Positions 4,885 through 48,907 of a stretch of 48,907 nt of DNA are shown in pieces. Below the pieces are notes generated by a model. That model had not been told where the DNA came from, made no database searches, and saw nothing but the letters and a program-made list of their open reading frames with translations. Source of the stretch: Spirochaetales bacterium (GTDB lineage: Bacteria; Spirochaetota; GWE2-31-10). Position 1 is the stretch's first letter, and the number at the start of each line of letters is the position of its first letter. Location of the stretch: positions 1-48,907 of the forward strand of contig JAFLVQ010000002.1 of NCBI GenBank assembly GCA_022508205.1. Direction: 5' to 3'. A program made the position numbers and the translations under genes.

Positions 4885-7800
4885 TTAATTTGATGAAGGC
4901 GCAACCCAAATTGAAGTGCCGGCATCTTCCCAAATTTTAAAGTAGAAGTCGTACTGTCCGCGGGATGGAACTTTAAAAGGCTGACTGTCCTTTGCTCCTA
5001 CTTTATTATCCTTTTCCCAGTGAAGAATGCCGTTGTTGGGCAGTTTTGCGGGATCGGCATTGGTGTCGATTGTAACTTTATCTCCTTCCTGTAAAAGGAC
5101 ATTTTTAAGATAAAGTTCTTTCTTCAAAGTCGGATATGTTTTATTGTCAATGATTGCACTTACTGAAAATTGGTGTTTATTCACACCATTTACGCATAAG
5201 TAATAGTCGGCAGCTATCAAGCCTGCTGTTCTTGGAATTTCTATCCACTGAGAGTATCCTTTGGTATTATCTTTTTCATTCCAAATCTTATAATACATTT
5301 TGTAAATACCGTCCTCTTCAGCAATATAAGCCGCTTCGCTGACTCTATAGTTTGGATTGTCTTTATTGAATCCGAGTGCACCTTCCCACTGGTCAAGTGC
5401 TTTTTCGTTTTTATCCTTAATTTGTACTTTATCGCCTTTTTTCAACGGATAGCCCATTTGCGTATAACCTGCGGCATTCACAGATTCGATATAGTATTCT
5501 TTGTCTAAAGTCGGCCATGTCGCAGTATCCGGAGTAGGATTCAATGTGAAACTTTTTACTGCCCTGTCGTTGACCCAAAGATTTATATCGCTTCCGCTAA
5601 ATTCAAATGTTACATTGACCTCTACATTAGCTGCCGGCATGTTGAATTGATAAGGATGAGTATCTTTATTGAGTCTTTCGACTTTCATATCAGCATTTTC
5701 TGTTGTGTTTGTAACCTTGATTTGTTCTATGTAGTCATTATTTGACGGTGTTGCAATCAAGTAGACTGTTTCGCCATAAAGTACTTTTGTTCCGCTTGTG
5801 TATGTTGTTCCTGCGGGCGACAATTTTTTTGTTGCCTCACTGTAAGTGTAGCTGCTTGATAATGTGAAACTTCCGTCTGACGGATTAGTAAATGTCAGTG
5901 AGTATGACTTCTTCCGGAATTTTGCGGCAATCTTTACTTCTTCCGACGGCATAGTAACCGTTTCGCCACTGGTTATCGATTTTCCGTTCCATGTGATAGT
6001 TTCTGTTTCATAGCCGTCGTCGGGAGTTGCCAGAACAGTAACTTGTGTGTTTTCTACTACATACGCGTCGCCGCCGAGCCAGCTTTCGCTGCTGCTGGTT
6101 ACTGTTTCGGTGCCTACTCTGACAATTACGGTTCCGCCCGTAACTGTATCGATGTATACGCGTTTTGCATTTGAAATGCTGAATACAACCGTAATAATTA
6201 TATTTTTATCGGGAACGGTGAATGTGTACTCTTTGTTTTTCGTCGCAGCAGTAACTTCTTCGCTGCCGGAGCCATTTGCCCACTTAACTCCCACCTGCCC
6301 AACTTCATAGATTGCATCTCCGACTTTTCCCGGTGTTGTTTCTATTATAACTTCGGTTCCTGCGGCAAAATACATTGTATTTGCGGGTATGATATACGTT
6401 TTTCCCTGATACAATTCTGCGATTCCGGCGTTATTCGGAGTAGTTTCGAGTTTGACTTCAATCTTTTGTCCGAAAGTAGCTTCGATTTCGACATCGCCTT
6501 CAGGCATTGCAAAAGTAATTTCGCTTACTCCGTTGCCTGTATCGGTTCGCTGATTTTCCAAACTTTCTTCCCTGTTTTTGATAACAATCGCGCCCAAAGC
6601 TGTTTCGCCGTTGCCGGCCGCTTTTAATGTAACTTCTTCGCCTGCTTTGGCACTTTTTGCGGATGTTATTGTGCCGCCTTTCGAGTCTTTTATTGTAATC
6701 AGATATCCTCGGAAAACGGCAGATACGGTAACGCTGTTTTCCGGCATTACGAAAGTGTATTCATTATCGCTGTTTTTTGTTACAGCAACAGCCGCTTGAG
6801 TGGTGCCGTTTTCGGTAACGGTTATGCTGTCTATTGCGACATAACCTTCATCCGGCTTGCCTGTAACTGTAATTGTTGTTCCTTTATATGCTTTTGCATG
6901 ACTGAATTTCAGCTCTCCGTTGATGACAGCTCCCTGTAATATTTCGTAGCCTGCTTTTGCGGAAAATAATACTTCCAAAGTGGAATCGACGTCCTCCATT
7001 TCAAATGTTATTTTTTCCGATGATTCCAATGTTTCGCCGTTGAGCTTTATGTACGTAATTTCATTGCCGTCTGCCGGTGTAATTTTTGCGGTAACTTCGG
7101 TTTCGGGCTGCAAATACGTTTCCAGCGGTATAGATTCGCCGTTTACGGATAATTCAACGTTTCCGTCTCCCGATATTTTGACGGATAATTTTTTTGCTCC
7201 GAATTTTGTTACACTTACGGTAAGTATTACTTGTGATGCCGGCATAGTAAACGAAAAGTCTCCGATGTTTGCGTTTTCGATTGTTACTTCGACATTTTGC
7301 TGTACGCCGTATTCATCTGTATACGATACTTTCGGTATTTCCGGCAAAATGTAGTCCGAATCCGGTTTTGCCGATACTTTGATTACTTCGCCTGCGGGGA
7401 TTCTTTCCGACTTCCAATCAAGCGTTGTTCCGTCATTATGCGACAACGTAACTGTCACGTGATCTTTTTCGCCCACTGTGTTAAGCGTAATGGAGTACTT
7501 GGAAACTTCGTTTTTGCGTTTGAATGTAGCATTTATTGTAATAGGGTAGCTCGGCATGTCAAATGTTTTGTTTCCAAGTGAGATATTACGGATAATTTCG
7601 TTGCCGCTCTTTTCAATGTATGTGTACCATAAATTTTCCAATTCATATTCATCGCTTGCGGGGGTAGCTGTCACTGTTACGGGAGATTTTGCAACTGCTC
7701 TGTCAACGCCGCATGTTACAGTTCCGTTTTCGATATTGTCGTCGATTGTGATTTTATATCCGATTTGGATTGGCAGTACGGTTTCTTTTTTTATTCCGTC

Positions 7801-8127
7801 GTCAGTGTACGAAATTGTAATTTTTGTGTTGTTCTCGGTGAGTCTTGCAGATGGAGAATACGTATATTCGCCGCTCTTCAGTTCTTTTGCGGAACCGTTG
7901 GAATAATTCGCTTTTACGACCATTCCGTCGGGATTGAATGTTTCTCCGGCAATATAGAGCGTTTTTGTCGGGTTGGAAGTTACATCTATACTTGCGAGTG
8001 TAACTTTTTCACTTTTCGGAGTTTCTTCCGCCTTGCAAGAGTTGTCGCAGGATAAAATTACTACCCCCCCCCATATCAGAAAAAACATAATCGAAAAAAT
8101 TTTAACTTTATTTATTATATTGCCCAT
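4885..8127 (-). CDS. Large surface lipoprotein with an N-terminal Ig-like domain, about 10 divergent B-repeat-like modules and two tandem C-terminal putative glycan-binding modules
   Basis: The ORF track extends this gene to 8178. GGAGG followed by 5 nt and then ATG at 8127 gives MGNIINKVKIFSIMFFLIWGGVVILSC, a signal peptide with a lipobox Cys. It carries repeated ~80-aa modules of the pattern G..V......G..VT..A.P..GY. The corrected length is 1080 aa. Confidence 0.8.
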   Translation of the reverse strand: MGNIINKVKIFSIMFFLIWGGVVILSCDNSCKAEETPKSEKVTLASIDVTSNPTKTLYIAGETFNPDGMVVKANYSNGSAKELKSGEYTYSPSARLTENNTKITISYTDDGIKKETVLPIQIGYKITIDDNIENGTVTCGVDRAVAKSPVTVTATPASDEYELENLWYTYIEKSGNEIIRNISLGNKTFDMPSYPITINATFKRKNEVSKYSITLNTVGEKDHVTVTLSHNDGTTLDWKSERIPAGEVIKVSAKPDSDYILPEIPKVSYTDEYGVQQNVEVTIENANIGDFSFTMPASQVILTVSVTKFGAKKLSVKISGDGNVELSVNGESIPLETYLQPETEVTAKITPADGNEITYIKLNGETLESSEKITFEMEDVDSTLEVLFSAKAGYEILQGAVINGELKFSHAKAYKGTTITVTGKPDEGYVAIDSITVTENGTTQAAVAVTKNSDNEYTFVMPENSVTVSAVFRGYLITIKDSKGGTITSAKSAKAGEEVTLKAAGNGETALGAIVIKNREESLENQRTDTGNGVSEITFAMPEGDVEIEATFGQKIEVKLETTPNNAGIAELYQGKTYIIPANTMYFAAGTEVIIETTPGKVGDAIYEVGQVGVKWANGSGSEEVTAATKNKEYTFTVPDKNIIITVVFSISNAKRVYIDTVTGGTVIVRVGTETVTSSSESWLGGDAYVVENTQVTVLATPDDGYETETITWNGKSITSGETVTMPSEEVKIAAKFRKKSYSLTFTNPSDGSFTLSSSYTYSEATKKLSPAGTTYTSGTKVLYGETVYLIATPSNNDYIEQIKVTNTTENADMKVERLNKDTHPYQFNMPAANVEVNVTFEFSGSDINLWVNDRAVKSFTLNPTPDTATWPTLDKEYYIESVNAAGYTQMGYPLKKGDKVQIKDKNEKALDQWEGALGFNKDNPNYRVSEAAYIAEEDGIYKMYYKIWNEKDNTKGYSQWIEIPRTAGLIAADYYLCVNGVNKHQFSVSAIIDNKTYPTLKKELYLKNVLLQEGDKVTIDTNADPAKLPNNGILHWEKDNKVGAKDSQPFKVPSRGQYDFYFKIWEDAGTSIWVAPSSN
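8064..8072 (-). repeat. Homopolymeric G9 tract (C9 on the + strand) inside the signal-peptide coding region, in frame
   Basis: The coding strand reads ...CTG ATA TGG GGG GGG GTA GTA..., encoding L-I-W-G-G-V-V. The position was checked against the ORF-track frame. Confidence 0.95.
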
Positions 8128-15395: not shown

Positions 15396-18038
15396 TTATT
15401 TGTTTTTTTTGGCTTTCTTTTGTAAATCATAAAGCAAAGTCAACGCTTGAATTGGAGTTACTCTGTCCAAATCAAGAAATTTTACGGCATTGCAGATCTC
15501 TTTCGATGCGTTATCTTCCTTATAATTTTCATGAAAATCGAACAAATTGTCTTGATATGCTTCTGTTTCGCGGCTGCCTTGCATTGTGTTTTTGTTGTTA
15601 TCATTTTGTTCAAGTTTTTCCAATAAGGTTTTTGCGTATATTACGATTGAATCCGGCATTCCGGCAAGTTCCGCAACATGTATCCCGTAGCTTTTTTGTG
15701 CTGCTTCGGGAATTATTTTGTGCAGAAAAGTAAAACTTGTGCCGTCTTCTTTAATCGCTACCGAGTAATTTTTGATTCCTTCCTTTTTATCAAGCTGTGT
15801 CAATTCGTGGTAATGTGTGGCAAATAATGTTTTTGCACCTAAAATGCGTTTGTCGTGGATGTAGTCGAGAATTGCCCATGCAATAGCCAAACCGTCGTAT
15901 GTACTTGTTCCGCGCCCGATTTCATCCATAATTATAAGACTTCGCCCAGTAGCATACTTTAAAATATTGGCGGTTTCCTGCATTTCCACAAAGAAAGTAG
16001 ATTGTCCGCGCGCCAAGTTGTCGGATGTTCCTATGCGGGTAAAAATTCTGTCTACGACTCCGATGGTTGCCGATGTCGCCGGAACAAAGCAGCCAATCTG
16101 CGCCATTAAAATAATCAGTGCGTTTTGTCGTAAATACGTAGATTTTCCTGCCATATTCGGTCCGGTGATTATCATTAAATAATTATCTTCGGTAATTTTC
16201 GTATCATTCGGAATAAAATCATTGTAATCCATTTTTGTTTCCACTACGGGGTGACGTCCGCCGATGATTTCCAAATCAAAGCAGTCGGTTATGTTTGGTC
16301 GCACATATTCTCGTTCCCGAGAATTTTTTGCGAATGCCAGCAGTACATCGAGTTTGGAAATCACTTCCGCGTTTTCCTGAATTTGAACAAGCGATTTCAA
16401 CAGAATTTCCTTTGTTTCGATAAAAATAGTTTGTTCGATTTCATTGATTCGCTCCCGCGCGGTAAGAACTTTCGATTCATATTCAGACAATTCTTTATTG
16501 GTATAACGGCAGGAATTGACCAAAGACTGACGCAGGATAAAGTCGCCGTTGAGATTTTTTGACTGTATTTTCGATATTTCAAAGAAATAGCCCAAAATTT
16601 TATTGTATTTGATGCGCAGACTCGGAACATCGAAATTTGCCCGAATTTCGGATTCTATTTTGCCGATGTATTCTTTGCTCTTTGAAGACAGCTGTTTCAG
16701 TTCGTCCAATTCTTTTGAAAAACCGTCTTTTACAATATTTCCTTCGTCAATGAATGTAGCCGGATCGTCTTTTATTCGTTCCTCCAGCAGTGCTACTGTT
16801 TCTGGCATTGCTGCGAATGTGGATAATAATTCTTTCATTTGCGTGATGTTTCCAAGCAGTTTGATAATTTTGCCGCATTCCTGCAATGAAATTTTTATGC
16901 TGATCAAATCTTTCGGAGTTGCTTTGTCCATAACCAGCCGACCGGCAAGCCGTTCCAAGTCCGCAATATTTTTTATGGAATTTTCAAGATTTGCCGCCAA
17001 ACCCGAAGTTTTTATAAAAACATCTACAATATCGAGCCTTTTTTCTATTTCTTTCGGACGGAGCAGCGGTTCCACAATCCATTTTTTTAACAATCTGCCT
17101 CCCATTGCGGTCAATGTGCAATCCATTATTTCAAACAGCGAATTGGTTGTGGTTCCGTCGTTTTGATTGCGCAGAAGCTCCAAGTGCTTGATGGTAGATT
17201 CGTCGAGCCGCATTACACTGTCACTGTTGCGGTAATGCGGCGGGCGGATATGAGATAAAAAGCCTTGAAAATTATTTTGCAAGTATTTCAATAATGCTCC
17301 GGGTACTGTCAAATCGGTCTTGAGTTCGGGCATTCCGAGCTGGCGCAGACTTTGGGCATTGAACTGCGCTAATACTATTTTCTGATTTTCTTCCGGCTGA
17401 AATTGTTCGTCACCAAAGCGGTTAATCAGAATCCCTTCTGTTTCCGAGAAAATTTCTTCTAATATCGGATAACGGCAAAGCAGTGATTCAGGGACTATTA
17501 TTTCTTTTGGCAGCAGGCGGCACATTTCTCCCCGCAATACGGAAAAGCCTGATGTTATATCCAACTCTGCCATTTCAAATTCACCGGTGGAAATGTCGAT
17601 GTATGCAATTTCAAGCCACGTGCCTTTGGTATTCAATCCAAACAGATAATTGTTGCTTTTGTTTGTCAGCTGATCTTCTTTAACTATTGTGCCGGGAGTA
17701 ATTATTTCGGTAATGCCGCGCTTTACCAGTCCTTTGGCCAGTTTCGGATTTTCAAGCTGTTCGCAGATTGCTACCTTTTTGCCGAAAGAGACAAGTTTCT
17801 TTATATAAAAATCGGCAGCGTGATATGGAACTCCGCACATCGGAATTTCATTTTGCCGTTTGGTCAGTGTGATATTGAGAAGTCTTGCTGCTTCAACGGC
17901 GTCGTTGTCGAACATCTCGTAAAAATCTCCGCAGCGGAAAAACAAGAATGCATCCGGATATTTGATTTTTAATTCTTTATGCTGCTTCATCATCGGTGTA
18001 TCGTATGATGCTTTATCGATTTCTTTTTTTTCTGACAT
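15396..18038 (-). CDS. mutS: DNA mismatch repair protein MutS
   Basis: This is an 880-aa ORF. It has the N-terminal mismatch-binding segment TPMMKQHKELKIKYPDAFLFFRCGDFYEMF, a Walker A motif GPNMAGKST, and the motifs DEIGRGTSTYDG and THYHEL. Confidence 0.97.
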   Translation of the reverse strand: MSEKKEIDKASYDTPMMKQHKELKIKYPDAFLFFRCGDFYEMFDNDAVEAARLLNITLTKRQNEIPMCGVPYHAADFYIKKLVSFGKKVAICEQLENPKLAKGLVKRGITEIITPGTIVKEDQLTNKSNNYLFGLNTKGTWLEIAYIDISTGEFEMAELDITSGFSVLRGEMCRLLPKEIIVPESLLCRYPILEEIFSETEGILINRFGDEQFQPEENQKIVLAQFNAQSLRQLGMPELKTDLTVPGALLKYLQNNFQGFLSHIRPPHYRNSDSVMRLDESTIKHLELLRNQNDGTTTNSLFEIMDCTLTAMGGRLLKKWIVEPLLRPKEIEKRLDIVDVFIKTSGLAANLENSIKNIADLERLAGRLVMDKATPKDLISIKISLQECGKIIKLLGNITQMKELLSTFAAMPETVALLEERIKDDPATFIDEGNIVKDGFSKELDELKQLSSKSKEYIGKIESEIRANFDVPSLRIKYNKILGYFFEISKIQSKNLNGDFILRQSLVNSCRYTNKELSEYESKVLTARERINEIEQTIFIETKEILLKSLVQIQENAEVISKLDVLLAFAKNSREREYVRPNITDCFDLEIIGGRHPVVETKMDYNDFIPNDTKITEDNYLMIITGPNMAGKSTYLRQNALIILMAQIGCFVPATSATIGVVDRIFTRIGTSDNLARGQSTFFVEMQETANILKYATGRSLIIMDEIGRGTSTYDGLAIAWAILDYIHDKRILGAKTLFATHYHELTQLDKKEGIKNYSVAIKEDGTSFTFLHKIIPEAAQKSYGIHVAELAGMPDSIVIYAKTLLEKLEQNDNNKNTMQGSRETEAYQDNLFDFHENYKEDNASKEICNAVKFLDLDRVTPIQALTLLYDLQKKAKKNK

Positions 18039-26730: not shown

Positions 26731-29700
26731 ATGGAATGGAAAGATGCAGAAAAGTCGATAAATTTTCCCGATGCAGAAAAAGAAATCATCGAAAAATGGG
26801 AAAAAGACAGCACATTTGAAAAAAGTCTTGCGCGCAATAAAGGACGCAGACAATTCGTAATTTATGATGGACCTCCGTTTGCAACCGGACTGCCGCATTA
26901 TGGGCACATTTTACCTGGAACAATCAAAGATATTGTACCACGCTATCAAACAATGAAAGGTCAGTATGTTCCTCGCCGATGGGGATGGGACTGCCATGGA
27001 CTGCCGGTTGAAAATCTTATAGAAAAAGAACTTAATCTTAACAGCAAGAAAGAAATTCTTGCTTATGGTGAAGATAAATTCAATGAAGCCTGCCGTGCGA
27101 GTGTACTTAAATATGCCAATGAGTGGGAAAAATCAGTTACAAGAATGGGACGTTGGGTAGAATTCAAAGGTTCCTATAAAACGATGGATGCCGATTTCAT
27201 GGAAACAATCTGGTGGGTGTTCAAAACATTATGGGAAAAAGGTCTTATCTATGAAGGTTTTAAAATTCTGCCTTACTGTTGCCGCTGTACGACTCCGCTT
27301 TCTAATTTTGAAACAAATCAAGGGTATAAAGATGTTCAGGATCCGGCCGTTACCGTTGCATTTCAATTAAAAGAGCAGTCCGATACATACATTTTGGCAT
27401 GGACGACGACGCCTTGGACATTGCCTTCAAATACCGGCCTGGCAGTAGGCGAAGATATTGACTACATCAAAGTAGAAGATGACGGAAAATATTACATAAT
27501 GGCGGAAGTTCTTGCGAATCGCTACTACAAAAACCCGAACGAACTTAAAATTGCTGCAAAAATGAAAGGATCGGAACTTGTCGGTCTGCATTATATTCCG
27601 TTGTTTCCGTATTTTACAGCTTTGGAAAATGAAGGAGCTTTTCGCGTAGTTATAGGTCACCATGTAACAGTGGAATCGGGAACCGGTATTGTTCATATTG
27701 CGCCGGGATTCGGGGAGGACGATGCCGAAATCGGGCGCAAAGAAGGACTTCCGGCTCTTTGTCCGATTGACGCGGAAGGAAAATTCACCGCCGAAGTTAC
27801 GGACTATCAAGGTGAATACGTAAAATCTTTGGATAAAACAATTATTAAAAGATTAAAAGAAGAAGGCAAACTTATCAAACAGGAAACGTATCAGCACTCA
27901 TATCCTCATTGTTGGAGATGTGAGCAGCCGTTAATTTACAAGGCTGTGTCAAGCTGGTTTGTAAGTATCGATAAAATAAAAGAAACGATGATTGCTGCCA
28001 ATCAGAAAGTAAATTGGGTTCCCGAACATATCAAAAACGGACGATTCGGCAAATGGCTGGAGGGCGCACGGGACTGGGCTATCAGCCGTAACCGTTACTG
28101 GGGCTCTCCTATTCCCGTGTGGAAGTGTCCCGACTGCGGCGAAGTAATCTGTGTCGGAAGTATCGATGAGCTTTATCAATTATCCGGCGTAAAACTTGAC
28201 GATCTGCACAAGCATTTTGTGGATAAAATAACATTCCCATGCAAAAAATGCGGAGCGAAAATGCAGCGTGTAGATGAAGTTCTCGATTGCTGGTTTGAAT
28301 CTGGTTCTATGCCTTACGCGCAAAAGCATTATCCGTTTGAAAATAAAGAAGCGTTTGATGCTACATTTCCGGCAGATTTTATTGCCGAAGGTTTGGATCA
28401 AACAAGAGGCTGGTTTTATACATTGACAGTTTTGGGTGCGGCATTATTCGGTCAAAGTCCTATGAAAAATGTTGTGGTAAATGGACTTGTGCTGGCAGAA
28501 GACGGTCGGAAAATGTCAAAACGACTGAAAAATTATCCCGAAGTAGATTATATTTTCAATAAATACGGAGCAGATGCACTGCGTTTGTTCCTGATGAATT
28601 CAGCTGCAATTAAGGCCGGTGAGTTATTATTCAGTGAAAAAGGCGTTGAAGATGTAATCAAGCGTTACCACCTGCCACTGTGGAATACGTATTCGTTTTT
28701 TGTAACTTATGCAAAGGTAGACAACTGGGCTCCGGAAAATCAGGATAATAATTATAAAAATCCGCTTGATATTTGGCTGCAAAGTTATACGGAAAAATTG
28801 GCGGCAGATTGTGACAAAGCTTTGGGTGAGTATGATTTCCAAACTGCGGTACGTTCTCTGTATGATTATATCGACAATCTTACAAACTGGTATGTTCGCC
28901 GTTCCCGCCGCAGATTTTGGAAATCCGAAGACGATAACGATAAAAAACAAGCATATACAGCGTTATACAATGCGTTGATTACGTTCTGCAAAGCTGCGGC
29001 TCCTATTGCACCGTTCCTCTCCGAAAAAATTTACGGTGCTCTGCGAACCGAGAATATGAGCGAATCGGTGCATTTATGCGATTACCCGACAGGCGATGCT
29101 TCCAAGCGTGATTTAACTATAGAACGGGAAATGGAACTTGTTCAGCGAGTCGTGGAAATGGGGCGTTCTTTGCGCGCGAAAGTAGGTATTAACTTGCGAA
29201 AACCTTTGAATGCGGTTTATATAATTACCAGAAATCAAGACGAAATGGACTTGATGAGAAAAATGGAAAGTATTGTAAAAGAAGAGCTGAATGTCAAAAA
29301 TGTAGTGTATGAAACAGAAGAGGAAAAACTTGTTTCATTGTCATGCAAGGCTAATTTCCGTGTGCTTGGTAAAAAAGCCGGCAAGAGTATGAAAGCTGTA
29401 GCTGCGGTTATTGCCGGATTCGGAGCAAAAGAAGCCGCAATGATTGAAAACGGTACTTCGGTAACAGTGAATGTTGACGGCAATACATTTGAACTGACTG
29501 CGGAAGATGTTATTATCGACAGAAAAGAAAAAGAAGGGCTTACCGTGCAGAACGAAGGCACTTTGACGATTGCACTCGATACAAAACTTACGCAGGAACT
29601 GATTGACGAAGGAATTGCGAGAGAATTTATTCGTGCCGTTCAGAATTTGCGAAAGGAACGCGGCTTTGACGTTACGGACAGAATTAAAATTGTCTATGAA

Positions 29701-31759: not shown

Positions 31760-31863
31760 TTTTCCCTCTTTTATAAAAGTAAGGCTGCATCAAAACAGCG
31801 TCAAGTGTCAACTATTTTTCTACAGCCTTGTTAAAAAAAAAGTGTATAATTTGTTTTATAATA

Positions 31864-35960: not shown

Positions 35961-35992
35961 AAAAAAAAGCTGCCCTTAGGACAGCTTTTTTG
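35961..35992. terminator. Bidirectional rho-independent terminator between convergent U32 and amylase genes
   Basis: The stem is aaaagctg(c)cc-tta-gg(a)cagctttt, flanked by an A-run on the left and a T-run on the right. Confidence 0.6.
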
Positions 35993-36002
35993 TAATCGGT
36001 AA

Positions 36003-38147
36003 TTATTGAGCAGCTTCGATTAACAATGTGCCATTGTTTTTATCTGTAATCGTAAATGTTGCTTTGCCGTTTGTAACATCAGCAGGTTCACCGGTGTAGA
36101 AATCTTTTACTTTTGCAGCTCCGATTGATGAAACATCGACTGTCACTTCACCCTCAGCTGCGCCAAGAACGACAACAACTTTATCGTTACCTTTTTCACG
36201 GCTGAACGCATAGCCTGCGCTAAGGTCAATCTTTTTGTGTACACCCGCTCCGACGGCAGTGTGATTTTTTCGGAAGTTCAGCACTTTTGACCAGTGAGCG
36301 TGAATGTTTTCGTCGAATGTGTAGTTTAGAGCAGCATTGTAACCAGCTTCTACGCTTTTCCACGGCATTTGCGAACGATTTTTCTGATCATCATCACCCT
36401 TAAATGATGCGTCGCTGTCTTTTCGTCCGGCTTCATCACCGTAGTAAACTTGAATTGCTCCCGGACACATCGCAAGCAATGAACCTGCAATCATTTGTTT
36501 TTCCGCACTCTTTGAATAAGCGGAATAAAATAAACCGTTGCTGTCTTGAGCTCCCGTATCGTGAGAACTGATGTAGCTTAAAACGTTGAAAGCTGGGTCT
36601 GAATTGATATTTTCGGCATAACTCGAATAAGTAGTATCTATATCGGAGATAGTAGTTAACGCGTTTTTTGCTACCGAACGGAACGAGAAGTTAATCATCG
36701 AATCAAATCCGCCTTCGGTGTAATACGCATCTTTTGTCACGCCGTGTAGCCAGTGCTCGCCTGTCATCCAGAAATCGCTGTCATCGACCTTTTTGTCGGA
36801 ATTTTTGTTTTTCCAGTCTCGCAGTGCCTGTGTACATGCAACTTTTAGCTGATACCACGCTTCTTTTTCCACATGTTTTGCCGTATCACAGCGGAACCCG
36901 TCGATACCGAACTCGCGCACCCAGCTGCTGAGCCAGTAAATCAGATAATCTCTTACACGGTAATTTGAATTCTCTTCCAGCTCGACAACATTATATCCTT
37001 CGGTAGGATAAAACTTTGCCATTTCCGCTGTAGCTGTATGCTTTTTTGTAAGGAATACAGGCAGTTTAACGGCAAAATTGTTTTCCGTAATGAAATCAGG
37101 CAAAGCACCGCCACTCGAACCTGTTAAATCTCCGCTACCTGTGTGATAGTGGCTGCATAACCCTGCGCGAATCCAGTCGCCGCCCCACCAGTCGTCCCAG
37201 CCGTTAGACTTTTCAGTGGAATAATCAATATAGTCATGATAATTCTTGATTGTGATTTCTGCAGTATCATTAAAATTATCTTTGAGTACTCCCGGATACA
37301 AATGCACAGCATCTTCGATAGTGTTGTAACCCGGATGGTTCATAACTACATCCATTACAATGCGAATTCTTTTCTCATGTGCTTTGTTGACAAAAGTGCG
37401 AAACTCCTCAACGGTTCCCATACTTGCGTCCATATTTGTGTAATCCATTGCATAGTAACCGTGATACGGATAATGGAAGAATTCACTGTTGCCGCCGATA
37501 CAGAAACCATGAATCTGCTCATACGGTGCGGTAATCCAGATTGCGTTGATACCCAATTCTTCCAAGTAATCAAGTTTTGCGGTAAGCCCTGCAATGTCTC
37601 CGCCGTAAAATTTTCCGGCATCATCCTCTTTTGTAGGATCTCCTTTTTCACGACCGTAAGACTCGTCATTGTTTTCATCGCCATTGTAAAAACGGTCGGT
37701 GATTACAAAATACACGCTGGCATTGTCCCAGAACTCGTTATTTAACTTATAATCCGAAGGGAGTAAGGTTTCCCAACTATTTGCAGCAGCGCGTTTCTCT
37801 TTTACCGTTACTTCGCAAGTTGCCGATTTTCCGCCTGCTTCGGCAGTAATTGTTGCAGTACCGACTCCTCTACCGGTAACTACTCCATCGTTGCTTACGG
37901 TTGCGACATTTTCATCGCTTGATGTCCAAGTAACCTCTGCATTTTCCGCATCTTTCGGCGATACTGTCGCTTTCAATGTTTCGGATGAAGAAACTGCAAT
38001 TATTACGGAAGTTGGTGACAATCTTATACTTGTGACTGCTTTTTTTGGTGTTTCGCTGGATTCTTTGGAACCAGAATCGGGTTCTGAGCAGCCGAACATG
38101 AACAAGATTACAGTTGCTAATGTTAAAAATACTTTAAACTGTTTCAA
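36003..38147 (-). CDS. GH13 alpha-amylase lipoprotein (MalS-like) with N-terminal Big_2 Ig-like domain
   Basis: This is a 714-aa ORF. The start is TTG at 38147, 7 nt after AAGGAG, and the lipobox is ...LFMFGC. The Big_2 pattern is VTSIRLSP....I.......L.ATV.P.DA....VTWTSSDENVATVS.DGVVTG...GTATITA. GH13 regions are VMDVVMNHPGY, GIDGFRCDTAKHV, GEHW and YISSHD. Confidence 0.9.
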   Translation of the reverse strand: MKQFKVFLTLATVILFMFGCSEPDSGSKESSETPKKAVTSIRLSPTSVIIAVSSSETLKATVSPKDAENAEVTWTSSDENVATVSNDGVVTGRGVGTATITAEAGGKSATCEVTVKEKRAAANSWETLLPSDYKLNNEFWDNASVYFVITDRFYNGDENNDESYGREKGDPTKEDDAGKFYGGDIAGLTAKLDYLEELGINAIWITAPYEQIHGFCIGGNSEFFHYPYHGYYAMDYTNMDASMGTVEEFRTFVNKAHEKRIRIVMDVVMNHPGYNTIEDAVHLYPGVLKDNFNDTAEITIKNYHDYIDYSTEKSNGWDDWWGGDWIRAGLCSHYHTGSGDLTGSSGGALPDFITENNFAVKLPVFLTKKHTATAEMAKFYPTEGYNVVELEENSNYRVRDYLIYWLSSWVREFGIDGFRCDTAKHVEKEAWYQLKVACTQALRDWKNKNSDKKVDDSDFWMTGEHWLHGVTKDAYYTEGGFDSMINFSFRSVAKNALTTISDIDTTYSSYAENINSDPAFNVLSYISSHDTGAQDSNGLFYSAYSKSAEKQMIAGSLLAMCPGAIQVYYGDEAGRKDSDASFKGDDDQKNRSQMPWKSVEAGYNAALNYTFDENIHAHWSKVLNFRKNHTAVGAGVHKKIDLSAGYAFSREKGNDKVVVVLGAAEGEVTVDVSSIGAAKVKDFYTGEPADVTNGKATFTITDKNNGTLLIEAAQ

Positions 38148-38246: not shown

Positions 38247-41009
38247 CTAACTCTTCTTCTTTAAGATAACAAAACTTTTTTTCTCAACTGCTGTCGGAGC
38301 AGAATCAATCTCTTCAGTCTTTCCCTCTGTTACGTTAATAGCTTTGTAGCCGTCACTATCTGGGATTTTAAAGGCCTCATTTGATGAGTTGAAATAAACC
38401 ACAAAGTCTTCTGTAGTATATTTGATTACGCTGCCGTCATTATTAGCTTTTTCTGCTGTTGCTTTTGTATTGCTGCCGAAAGCCTCACGATTTTCTTTAC
38501 GCAGTTTAATCAAGCCTTTGTAAACGTTATATACGTCTTTGTAGTATTCTTTGAATTTCAAATCAATTTGATTGATTTCATCATCTGAGGCGTAGCTGTT
38601 TTCGTCACCTTGTTTTGTTCTCATAAATTCTTGTCCGCCGTTGATAAACGGAGTTCCCTGTGCGAGGAATACAAGTGCGGCGGCAAGTTTGTTTTGTGCA
38701 CGAAGTTCATTTTGTTGATTTTCGGTAAACTTATCATACGCTTTCCATCCGTCTTTATCTTTTCCGTCGTTTAACGAAATCGCCAGTTTATCCGCAAGAG
38801 TGTAGTTATCGTGACATTCCACATAGTTTATGGAACGGCCCGGATGCTTTGTCAATGACGGAGACCCTTTCAGTCCTTCGATTACCGCAGCAACCAAATC
38901 TTTTTTGTCACCATCTTCATAAGTACCTTGTACGAATCCTTTTTGGAAACCGCCGAATTCGGCACCTTTGATTGCGTTTCTGATGTCGTCGTTAAACATC
39001 GCAACACCTTCCATGGCGTCGACTGTTTTTTTGCTGTCCGATGTTATTCCGTTTTCAACGGGCGAGCTACCGCCTGTCCAAGGTTCGCCGTAAACCATTA
39101 CATGTTTATCGATTTTCTTTAATTCCGCGTAAATTTCTTTCATTGTTTCTTTTTCATGCAGCCCCATGAGGTCGAAACGGAAGCCGTTGATGTGGTAATC
39201 GTTCATCCAGTGTTTCAAGCTGTCGATCATGTATTTTTTAAACATTACCCGATTGGAAGCAGTTTCGTTGCCGCAGCCCGAACCGTTGGAGTAAGTTCCG
39301 TTTGTCAAACGATAGTAATAATAAGGAACAGTCATATCGAACAACGAACCTATACCTGTTCCGTTGGTGTGGTTGTAAACTACGTCCATGTTTACGGCAA
39401 TTCCGGCCTCGTGGAATGCTTGTATCATTGTACGCATCTGACATACAGCGTTGCGTCCGTCAACATCAGGTTTATTTACATAACGGCCTTCCGGTACATT
39501 GTATTGGTATGGGTTATATCCCCAGTTATATTTACCATCGTCATTCTTTTCCGCATAGTCGAACATCGGCAGAATTTGAACGTGTGTAACGCCCAAATCT
39601 TTTAAATGTGCAGCAAATTTGTCGGGGTCGGAGCTTTTAAGTGCACTTGTAATTTCATCGAATTTACCGGTACTGTTTGGTACAAAAGCGCGGCTCCAGT
39701 CACGAATGTGCATTTCGTAAATAACAGCATCGGTATACTCGCCTTCAAATGGGTTTGTATATTCGATTTCCCAGCCTGCTGGCTGTGCGGTTGTATCCGT
39801 AGCTAAATCCACTATTTGTCCGGCAACACTGTCCGGTGCTGCGGAATGTGCGTAAATATCGCAAATCCTGTTTGTGCTACCGCCGTTTGTGATTTCATAA
39901 GTATAATATTTGCCTTTCAAATCTTCCTTAATTTCGACAGACCATACACCGGTTTCTTCATTTAAAGTCATTTTAGTGCGCTTGCCTTTGTTTGCTGTCT
40001 CTGTTTTTGCGGCTTCTTCTTCTGTAAGGATAAAATTATGTTCTTTGCCGTCTTCTTTTGCTCCGTTCCAGTCATCGTAAATAAGCACACTTACTTCGCT
40101 TGCAAGAGGTGCCCAAACTTTGAAAGTTGTACTTGCAGAAGTATAAATAGCTCCGAGAGTTTCGTTTGCGGCTTCCTTTTCGGCTGCTTTAGTACTGAGA
40201 ACTTCATTCATGCCGATTTCCTTTCCGTCATCGGGGATGAACTTTGCATGAGAAATTTTATATGTTTTTTCCAAATCCAAATCCTCTCCAATCTCTACCC
40301 AAAAATTGGAAGTGAAGTTGTAATTTTTCAGATATCTTTCATCGTCTGATTTTCTGTAGGTATAATTTCTCATGTTTGTTATTTTTACTTCGGTTCCGTC
40401 AGTTGCCCGTATTGTAAAACCGTTATTCGACGGAGATGCACTGATTGCATACTTGCAGGAAAGGGTCAGCTGCATTTCCAATGGGCTGATCATTACCGCA
40501 CCTACAATCTGTGGCTTTGCATTCGGATCTACTGCATAAACATTTGAATTCCCGCTTATTGCGGCAAAATGTTTTCCCCATGAAAGATTCCAAGACCGAT
40601 CCAGATCCGGATCTTTATCTGCCCAATTGCCTTTTCTTATGATAAAGTTGATCTTCCCGTTGTCACTTTCAGCAGCATTTTTCACGTCGTTGTTAGGACT
40701 GTTTTCACTGAATTTAAGATATGCGACTTTTTTTCCGTCAACATCAATAAAGTCTGTAAAATCTCCTTGAGCACCCTCTCCGGCGTCAACCCAAAGCCAC
40801 ACATTCCAATCGGTATAATTTCCGTCGGGTCTGTAATAGTACAGCACTGCTTCGTCATTTGCGCCTAATTTCTCTTTGGCGGCAATAACGATTTTTATTG
40901 CTTCGGGTGTTTCTTCAATTGTTCCGGGAGCGACTTTTTCGCCATTGCTTCCGCCCCCCCCCACTGTTGTCTTTTTTGCTGCTGCTACTGCTGCTCGGTT
41001 CGCAGCCAA
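38247..41009 (-). CDS. Type I pullulanase (GH13 with CBM41- and CBM48-like N-terminal modules), enzyme-encoding frame; the authentic start is in another frame (see 40915..41064)
   Basis: This is a 920-aa frame with YYRPDGNYTDWNVWLW (CBM41-like) and TFKVWAPLASEVSVLIYDDW (CBM48-like). It also has YNWGYNPYQYNVPEGRY, MDVVYNHT, INGFRFDLMG, YGEPW and YVECHDN. The ORF-track M is an in-frame TTG with no SD and no signal peptide. Confidence 0.9.
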   Translation of the reverse strand: MAANRAAVAAAKKTTVGGGGSNGEKVAPGTIEETPEAIKIVIAAKEKLGANDEAVLYYYRPDGNYTDWNVWLWVDAGEGAQGDFTDFIDVDGKKVAYLKFSENSPNNDVKNAAESDNGKINFIIRKGNWADKDPDLDRSWNLSWGKHFAAISGNSNVYAVDPNAKPQIVGAVMISPLEMQLTLSCKYAISASPSNNGFTIRATDGTEVKITNMRNYTYRKSDDERYLKNYNFTSNFWVEIGEDLDLEKTYKISHAKFIPDDGKEIGMNEVLSTKAAEKEAANETLGAIYTSASTTFKVWAPLASEVSVLIYDDWNGAKEDGKEHNFILTEEEAAKTETANKGKRTKMTLNEETGVWSVEIKEDLKGKYYTYEITNGGSTNRICDIYAHSAAPDSVAGQIVDLATDTTAQPAGWEIEYTNPFEGEYTDAVIYEMHIRDWSRAFVPNSTGKFDEITSALKSSDPDKFAAHLKDLGVTHVQILPMFDYAEKNDDGKYNWGYNPYQYNVPEGRYVNKPDVDGRNAVCQMRTMIQAFHEAGIAVNMDVVYNHTNGTGIGSLFDMTVPYYYYRLTNGTYSNGSGCGNETASNRVMFKKYMIDSLKHWMNDYHINGFRFDLMGLHEKETMKEIYAELKKIDKHVMVYGEPWTGGSSPVENGITSDSKKTVDAMEGVAMFNDDIRNAIKGAEFGGFQKGFVQGTYEDGDKKDLVAAVIEGLKGSPSLTKHPGRSINYVECHDNYTLADKLAISLNDGKDKDGWKAYDKFTENQQNELRAQNKLAAALVFLAQGTPFINGGQEFMRTKQGDENSYASDDEINQIDLKFKEYYKDVYNVYKGLIKLRKENREAFGSNTKATAEKANNDGSVIKYTTEDFVVYFNSSNEAFKIPDSDGYKAINVTEGKTEEIDSAPTAVEKKSFVILKKKS

Positions 41010-41064
41010 TCAAAAATAAAATAGATGCGATTAACGCAATAATTGAATTAATTATTCGTTTCAT
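40915..41064 (-). CDS. Lipoprotein signal-peptide leader of the pullulanase, out of frame with the enzyme body at the G9 tract (49-codon ORF as sequenced)
   Basis: Read by hand. GGAGG (41074..41070), 5 nt, then ATG at 41064 gives MKRIINSIIALIASILFLIGCEPSSSSSSKKDNSGGGRKQWRKSRSRNN*. The lipobox is L-I-G-C. The Ser-rich linker continues sensibly only if the frame shifts at the G-run. Confidence 0.75.
   Translation of the reverse strand: MKRIINSIIALIASILFLIGCEPSSSSSSKKDNSGGGRKQWRKSRSRNN
40954..40962 (-). repeat. Homopolymeric G9 tract (C9 on the + strand) at the frame junction of the pullulanase gene
   Basis: The coding strand reads ...AAC AGT GGGGGGGGG CGG AAG... The position was verified against the ORF-track frame (V16-G17-G18-G19-G20 of the 920-aa frame). 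Confidence 0.95.
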
Positions 41065-41092
41065 TGTTTCCTCCAATTTGTTTTTTTCATCA

Positions 41093-41121
41093 AGTATAGA
41101 TTTTTAGATATTGATTTACAA
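41093..41121 (-). promoter_or_regulatory. Candidate sigma70-type promoter for the pullulanase gene
   Basis: On the minus strand, TTGTAA (41121..41116), a 17-nt spacer, then TATACT (41098..41093), about 29 nt upstream of the ATG at 41064. Confidence 0.5.
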
Positions 41122-46088: not shown

Positions 46089-46199
46089 TTTCCCCCTCCC
46101 AGATAAAAAACAGATTATAATTTTATCAAACATAAAAAAATAACGGCTTAACATTTCTTTTGTAAAGAAATGAAAAGCCGCTTTTAAACAAAAAAGAAA

Positions 46200-48822: not shown

Positions 48823-48907
48823 ATGCTTCGGCTTGCAGACTTTTGCAAGAAAGTCGAAAACGATAGCAATGCTTCGGCTTGCAGACTTTCGTAAGAAGGT
48901 CGAAAAC
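48823..48907. repeat. Tandem direct repeat, two 39-nt units with a 7-nt spacer (46-nt period), running off the window end
   Basis: Unit 1 (48823..48861) is atgcttcggcttgcagacttttgcaagaaagtcgaaaac. Unit 2 (48869..48907) is atgcttcggcttgcagactttcgtaagaaggtcgaaaac, matching unit 1 at 36 of 39 positions. They belong to the same family as the inverted copy at 41364..41400. Confidence 0.85.

Follow-up and report, generated by a model that had tools for sequence, protein, structure and literature searches.

Repeats placed at the very start of a gene are known from Neisseria, in which pilC carries a poly-G tract in its signal-peptide coding region and opa carries CTCTT repeats in its leader. The genomes of Campylobacter jejuni, Neisseria, and Haemophilus each harbor several phase-variable homopolymeric loci, with bimodal run lengths and a mixture of ON and OFF states in assemblies (PMC11868660, PMC6321876, PMC3025981). 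In Treponema pallidum, poly-G tracts are found in the promoters of tpr subfamily II as well as within the coding sequences of TP0127, TP0479, and TP0618 (PMC3373638). An intragenic poly-C tract of Gardnerella switches NanH3, an extracellular glycoside hydrolase of the cell surface, between full-length and truncated forms (10.1101/2020.09.16.300947), and in Bacteroides thetaiotaomicron, surface lipoproteins, S-layers, and capsules are phase variable, with an altered susceptibility to phages as the demonstrated benefit (10.1101/521070, PMC12548429). Here, we analyze a run of nine G (G9) that splits a pullulanase gene near its 5′ end in positions 1 to 48,907 of contig JAFLVQ010000002.1 (GCA_022508205.1, Spirochaetales bacterium), a stretch of 48,907 nt hereafter called the window. 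The DNA stems from a gut/rumen-type Treponema, relatives of which were found among Hadza and Nepali human-gut metagenome-assembled genomes (MAGs) and among ruminant MAGs. We consider it likely that this gene is a slipped-strand contingency locus caught in its OFF phase. This explanation, which the initial annotation had placed first, is favored by G8 alleles in conspecific strains, by the recovery of G9 through a second assembly pipeline, by the reproducibility of G9 calls, and by the presence of tracts in other lipoprotein leaders.

The gene lies on the minus strand, where a GGAGG motif (41074..41070) is followed after 5 nt by an ATG at 41064. The leader open reading frame (ORF) that starts there encodes MKRIINSIIALIASILFLIGC-EPSSSSSSKKDNSGGGRKQWRKSRSRNN and displays the elements of a lipoprotein signal peptide (MKR-IINSIIALIASILFL-IGC), namely, a positive n-region, a hydrophobic h-region, and a lipobox (LIGC) ending in Cys; the same leader is found in the full-length orthologues P0002-P0006. 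This frame reaches the G9 run right after EPSSSSSSKKDNS, 13 codons past the lipobox Cys, and ends after 49 codons (stop at 40915..40917, minus strand). The 920-codon pullulanase frame (38247..41009), which starts from an incidental TTG, overlaps the leader ORF with an offset of one base, and the two frames meet within the nine-G run at 40954..40962. The initial annotation had described this arrangement, from the ribosome binding site to the frame junction, and it was found again upon rereading of the sequence. Its further claim that another tract length would fuse leader and enzyme also held upon in silico editing of the tract, since G8 and G11 yielded lipoproteins of 938 and 939 aa, respectively (...KKDNSGGGGSNGEKVAPG...), and G7, G9, and G10 led to truncation at 55, 49, and 56 aa, respectively. 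As expected for a phase-variable locus, a change in repeat number toggles the reading frame, and the G9 run is at or above the length (around 7 to 8 or more) from which G/C runs inside an ORF are considered unstable. Under the proposed mechanism, slipped-strand mispairing during replication would add or remove G residues in this hypermutable tract. At G8 or G11, leader and body would form one ORF and give rise to a lipid-anchored surface pullulanase; at G9, the dominant allele in the sample, translation would end at 49 codons and no enzyme would be exported.

The enzyme body encoded downstream of the tract is intact. Its Pfam domains are PUD, CBM48, and alpha-amylase, and both accessory modules score above their curated cut-offs (PF03714, 44.5 bits; PF02922, 38 bits). 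The best match to a solved structure is 2WAN (E = 3.5e-112), and Ruminococcus bromii Amy10 and Amy12 align as well. The conserved GH13 regions I-IV, which hold the catalytic Asp/Glu/Asp, are all complete (DVVYNHT, GFRFDLMG, YGEPWTGG, and YVECHDN, plus YNWGYNP). These predicted features identify the body as a bona fide type I pullulanase, similar to GH13 subfamily 14. Because its 920 codons are uninterrupted and every GH13 motif is present, the frameshift would have to be recent or reversible.

The comparison of tract length between orthologous genes that the initial annotation had called for was performed on around 10 conspecific contigs, obtained via exact-match look-ups of neighboring genes. 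Three strains with the same body as the window (A-type; L081, L082, and L087) carry G8 and encode an intact ...KKDNSGGGGSNGEKVAPG... lipoprotein, in contrast to the G9 of the window, and their flanks are around 99% identical to it. Tract length is thus polymorphic among close strains with conserved flanks, as would be expected of a phase-variable locus. The A run located upstream in the 5′ leader also varies, with A7 in the window and L087 and A6 in L081, L082, L085, L086, and L088. Since L087 is the strain closest to the window and has the same A7, the window allele is most simply explained by one slip that added a G. A second allele class (B-type; L085, L086, and L088) has an identical promoter, leader, and tract on a different PUD/GH13 body of 875 to 879 aa, for which G9 is the in-frame length. 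B-type alleles are around 99.5% identical to the window through the tract and the next base, where identity ends abruptly before resuming around 1.2 kb further on at 82 to 87%. Because homology stops exactly after it, the tract marks the 5′ junction of an allelic replacement. Judging from these alleles, the tract is maintained in both classes, in each at the length that its body needs.

The existence of two allele classes suggests another origin for the window allele, in which a crossover inside the tract would have joined a B-type leader, requiring G9, to an A-type body, requiring G8, leaving the hybrid out of frame. Both classes circulate in the same sample series, and the close B-type match runs from far upstream through G9 and the following C before homology ends. 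However, the upstream A7 of the window is that of the A-type strain L087 and not the A6 of B-type strains, and the crossover would have to fall within 8 to 9 nt; one slippage event is far more probable. We thus grant recombination only a very small chance of being the cause.

Other differences were observed during the same comparison. In L082 (10100-10146), 12 codons of the post-lipobox linker are duplicated (KKDNSGGSESNDE + KDNSGGGG...), placing an extra G6 beside G8. Intergenic homopolymers of A/T, and one of G, vary by 1 to 2 nt among strains (window 31833..31841, 35961, 41081..41087, 41148, 46091, and 46804), for example, as T8/T9/T10 at 31833 and as G5/G6 inside a Shine-Dalgarno sequence at 46091. 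A look-up through the AzlC neighbor returned no further alleles, the contigs being too short, and no match in JGI metagenomes was obtained for an exact pattern of the leader followed by G7 or longer; the species seems to be absent from that collection.

We also considered the possibility that the true length is G8 and that the ninth G was miscalled during sequencing or assembly. The window belongs to a MEGAHIT contig of 92 kb (ENA ERZ27293312, k141_789251) and therefore stems from a short-read, k-mer-based metagenome assembly. Some short-read chemistries are known to have difficulty with poly-G, a metagenome consensus can mask mixtures, and several Logan contigs (L097, L109, and L088) terminate at or beside poly-G tracts. 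Such contig ends offer a weak and non-specific hint of length heterogeneity, as strain-variable sites also break contigs. On the other hand, the majority path wins in a MEGAHIT k-mer assembly, and Logan contigs of run SRR13619852, matching the window contig at 100.000% identity along 9.5, 2.0, and 1.8 kb, also carry G9 in front of the same gene body. To judge by this identity, the run evidently comes from the same sample as the window, so that its G9 counts as a confirmation by a second assembler and as no biological replicate. For the same reason, L104 was rejected as an independent G9 replicate, being 100% identical to the window contig. The other G9 tract of the window (8064..8072) served as an error control: its length was G9 in all 8 assemblies, which come from several projects, and G9 calls are therefore reproducible. 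Among three conspecific strains, all other isolated single-base homopolymer differences were intergenic, and the G tract alone differed within a coding sequence. A chimera of coexisting A-type and B-type strains was likewise rejected: the 12-mer TG9CG is missing from both the G8 A-type allele and the G9 B-type allele, and a k-mer graph therefore could not generate it by joining them. Given the G9 of the second pipeline, the reproducible G9 calls, the restriction of other indels to intergenic regions, the conspecific G8 alleles, and the genus-wide occurrence of tracts, an assembly error is highly unlikely. The sole difference between the window and ENA contig L083 is a C versus A at window position 29518, in an isoleucyl-tRNA synthetase-like gene.

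A full-length enzyme could in principle be produced from the G9 allele by recoding, through either +1 ribosomal frameshifting or transcriptional slippage. On GGG GGG G, tRNA-Gly could shift and pair again without any mismatch; the run is followed in the leader frame by a CGG codon, which is presumably rare at a genomic GC content of 39%; and a modest hairpin involving the tract was detected (z = -2.1). Folding of the RNA downstream of the tract revealed no convincing or dedicated frameshift stimulator, and efficient transcriptional slippage has been described chiefly for A/T runs. Moreover, every close or distant orthologue is either in frame or devoid of the tract, which indicates that there is no conserved requirement for frameshifting; the out-of-frame arrangement expected to be shared by orthologues in a programmed frameshift is absent from them. 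Recoding is hence scarcely credible as an explanation for the G9 allele.

The length of the run is far beyond what chance would produce. In the window (39% GC), runs of 4, 5, and 6 number 53, 8, and 1, none has a length of 7 or 8, and two have a length of exactly 9; on the minus strand, both read as poly-G, and each belongs to a large lipoprotein gene, within its first 35 codons or so. We then extended the count to around 606 kb, comprising Treponema loci and the window. Runs of lengths 4 to 7 occur 877, 99, 12, and 2 times, and those of lengths 8 to 12 occur 8, 10, 3, 1, and 1 times, revealing a bimodal distribution with a second peak at 8 to 9 (23 runs of at least 8 versus around 0.3 extrapolated). 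A/T runs in the same 606 kb showed no second length peak. Codon usage points in the same direction. No Gly codon is rarer than GGG (11% in the window and 6% across all loci), the usual spelling of Gly-Gly is GGC-GGA or GGT-GGA, and GGG-GGG pairs are found 24 times versus around 2.8 expected, an excess of about 8-fold. A sibling species around 65% identical in this protein has no poly-G at this site and writes Gly-Gly-Gly as GGC-GGT-GGT. Since GGG is rare, GGG-GGG is in excess, and the sibling does without it, the tract is not needed for coding and, on this codon evidence, is no coding by-product. Its over-representation relative to composition and codon usage is another property expected of phase-variable loci, and would imply that mutability has been selected for.

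Long tracts are also concentrated at the start of lipoprotein genes. Among 20 poly-G tracts of at least 8 found in the window and in 80 loci from other genomes, 11 are on the coding strand between -60 and +135 nt of a predicted lipoprotein start, a zone that covers 2.4% of strand-specific positions (binomial P ~2e-13). Across around 68 kb of the contig to which the window belongs, G/C runs of at least 7 occur just three times, each attached to a lipoprotein gene: the two tracts of the window and a G10 in a promoter. Both ON and OFF states are represented across genomes. A pullulanase orthologue with 47% identity (L003) is OFF, with G10 in the corresponding post-lipobox position, tract-bearing GH13 lipoproteins in L015, L023, and L052 are ON, and a family of tract-bearing lipoproteins of around 250 aa is ON in L051 and L057 and OFF in L039, L065, and L069. 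In addition, poly-C runs of C8, C7, and C9 (L037:5036-5043, L038:5184-5190, and L080:5032-5040) occupy the n-region of the signal peptide of a lipoprotein of around 470 aa, encoded just downstream of a GH13 gene in three genomes that are 94 to 96% identical. All three copies are OFF, yet bodies of 450 to 474 codons remain open, which, as far as the sequences tell, would be expected of reversible switches and not of dead genes.

The tract-bearing lipoproteins of around 250 aa match no Pfam family and have no homologue in the window. They adjoin GH13 genes in L039, L051, L057, L065, and L069, and the family might be a starch-binding partner. An identical signal peptide and poly-G leader (MKKNVLKWLLPLFCVVAVSIFGCKTD..GGG) precedes a 256-aa lipoprotein in L051 (1408) and L057 (1405) and a 939-aa GH13 enzyme in L052 (2221). 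A promoter-type tract was observed in L101 (18983-18992), on the same contig as the window and around 9 kb beyond window position 48907, where G10 forms the 17-bp spacer between TTGCCG and TATAAG, around 37 nt upstream of a gene for a third lipoprotein, of 472 aa (MKRLVKCVILFAFALAFVSC). In a BcGHD (PF10022) gene, other strains have a poly-G tract, with lengths of G9, G12, or at least G12, that the strain of the window lacks; every observed length preserves the frame, and one contig stops inside the tract. Several Treponema-like pullulanase contigs (L004, L005, L021, L024, L036, L038, L039, L041, L049, L056, L058, L061, and L075) are binned as Prevotella, Paratractidigestivibacter, Desulfovibrionaceae, Anaerovoracaceae, or 'bacterium' (H076xx 'cleanbin' series), which is probably the result of mis-binning.

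The coordinates of the locus, of its neighbors, and of the related features are given in Table 1. The pullulanase gene is followed by that of an alpha-amylase lipoprotein. No terminator was found between the two, and they are probably co-transcribed as a two-gene operon, as predicted from this organization. Because pullulanase heads this probable operon, the OFF state may lower amylase expression too, through a possible polar effect.

Table 1. Features of the pullulanase locus, its surroundings, and related tracts in other contigs.
Feature	Position	Strand	Basis or remark
Promoter-like site of the pullulanase-amylase operon, TTGTAA-17 nt-TATACT	41093..41121	-	Consensus scan; unchanged in every conspecific locus
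A7 run in the 5′ leader, between the -10 box and Shine-Dalgarno	41081..41087	-	Polymorphic among strains
Shine-Dalgarno GGAGG	41070..41074	-	Read from sequence
Lipoprotein signal peptide MKRIINSIIALIASILFLIGC, lipobox L-I-G-C	41002..41064	-	Also in orthologues
Poly-G tract, G9, OFF	40954..40962	-	G8 fits this body; G9 fits the B-type body
Predicted truncated 49-codon product of the G9 allele, stop included	40915..41064	-	ORF reading
Intact type I pullulanase body, PUD/CBM41-like + CBM48 + GH13	38247..40953	-	One base off the leader frame
Alpha-amylase lipoprotein, Big_2 + GH13, MKQFKVFLTLATVILFMFGC	36003..38147	-	Downstream of pullulanase
Predicted intrinsic terminator closing the two-gene operon, 13-bp stem then T-run	35963..35991	-	Sequence scan
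Complete MutS, domains I-V	15396..18038	-	Encoded in the window
Second poly-G tract, G9, in frame, ON	8064..8072	-	In the signal peptide (...FFLIWGGVVILSC) of another surface lipoprotein
1080-aa Big_3/InlB-B-repeat (Flg_new_2) lipoprotein gene holding the second tract	4885..8127	-	Pfam
B-type bodies	L085:3698-6337, L086:3168-5795, L088		Homology to the window ends at 40953
BcGHD tract	L082:1693-1701, L103:2968-2979, L109:1931-1942		Homologous tract-less site in L101 near 11377

Several observations weigh against a switch and are best considered together with ordinary loss of function, in which a one-off +1 G in a G8 run would have created an incipient pseudogene with no role in switching. At the pullulanase locus, OFF was found in 1 biological sample of around 10. 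The second tract of the window displayed no length variation in 8 assemblies. The survey loci were picked by GH13 homology, and the survey is therefore not genome-wide. We infer both heterogeneity within the population and reversibility from assembled contigs. Furthermore, the window encodes a full-length MutS, which gives no obvious sign of a mismatch-repair defect, and slippage rates may accordingly be lower than in Campylobacter or Helicobacter, which lack MutS. Finally, two sibling assemblies (L111:1902-2024 and L112:1550-1672) have an A5-to-A4 deletion that cuts the pullulanase at 40 aa, as compared with L113-L119. This deletion emerged from a look at protein clusters of other species, in which most length differences had no connection with tracts. 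Such an ordinary frameshift outside any poly-G tract makes plain loss of function a real alternative and suggests that the gene is dispensable in some settings. In the window, two further GH13 lipoproteins are encoded that could compensate. Against loss of function, no stop interrupts the 920 codons of the body, its catalytic motifs are intact, and the tract is kept against codon preference in two divergent allele classes, in each at its in-frame length. The same architecture also recurs across species in mixed ON and OFF states, with long ORFs preserved behind OFF tracts. Mechanistically, loss of function differs from a switch only in the frequency and reversibility of the change. Taken together, these results make a mere incipient pseudogene unlikely, and we retain a slipped-strand switch in its OFF phase as the probable explanation.

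If the pullulanase gene is such a switch, cells in the OFF phase would lack surface pullulanase. Adaptive benefits can only be speculated upon; they may include escape from phages or antibodies that target surface lipoproteins, or bet-hedging on starch availability. More tentatively, and with somewhat less than even confidence, we propose that commensal gut/rumen treponemes possess a multi-locus poly-G/C 'phasome' located in the promoters, signal peptides, and post-lipobox linkers of surface lipoproteins, including GH13 enzymes, whereby individual cells would stochastically vary their glycan-harvesting surface. In this proposal, the tract might also serve as a junction at which a leader recombines onto alternative bodies, each tuned to its own tract length.

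Repeat-mediated phase variation has been cataloged almost entirely in pathogens, and the present case bears on whether multi-locus systems are restricted to them (PMC11868660). If true, a poly-G repertoire in these treponemes that targets surface lipoproteins and the enzymes of dietary starch degradation would extend phase variation to a fiber- and starch-degrading member of the microbiome that is typical of non-industrialized populations, and it would suggest that the cells of a population differ in their capacity to degrade carbohydrates. For the annotation of MAGs, treponeme genes that appear 'broken' at G/C tracts of at least 8 should be neither dismissed as pseudogenes nor silently repaired. 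With regard to novelty, the initial annotation knew of no such control of a polysaccharide-degrading enzyme in a spirochete. This stands insofar as we found no literature report of such switching in spirochetes other than T. pallidum, nor for starch-degrading enzymes, but homopolymer switching of a glycoside hydrolase as such is already known from Gardnerella NanH3 (10.1101/2020.09.16.300947). The mechanism is thus classical, and it is the group of organisms and the class of genes that are new.

Compared with known systems, the locus shares with those of C. jejuni, Neisseria, and Haemophilus an intragenic G/C homopolymer of around 8 to 11 near the 5′ end, which sets the ON or OFF state through the reading frame. 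The targets differ, being mostly glycosyltransferases, adhesins, iron receptors, and restriction-modification systems in these bacteria and lipoproteins including GH13 enzymes here. They are also pathogens or pathobionts, whereas the present organism is a commensal-type gut spirochete for which switching is proposed. Moreover, MutS, which Campylobacter and Helicobacter lack, is present here. The placement of the repeats of pilC and opa in or after the signal-peptide region resembles that of the second tract of the window and of the tracts in L015 and L037, but these genes encode outer-membrane or pilus proteins of other families and not lipoprotein enzymes. T. pallidum belongs to the same genus and has the same type of repeat, with tracts in both promoters and ORFs, as found here for the G10 spacer and the G9 ORF tracts. 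However, its best-studied cases concern the transcription of outer-membrane-protein candidates in an obligate pathogen, whereas here the tract lies in the coding leader of a lipoprotein enzyme from a free-living gut commensal lineage, and the loci share no sequence homology. NanH3 is an actinobacterial, cell-wall-anchored sialidase acting on host glycans, for which heterogeneity within the population was demonstrated experimentally and not, as here, deduced. The nearest ecological precedent is offered by B. thetaiotaomicron, a gut commensal that stochastically varies its surface lipoproteins, although it does so by site-specific DNA inversion of promoters or shufflons, in contrast to the repeat slippage proposed here.

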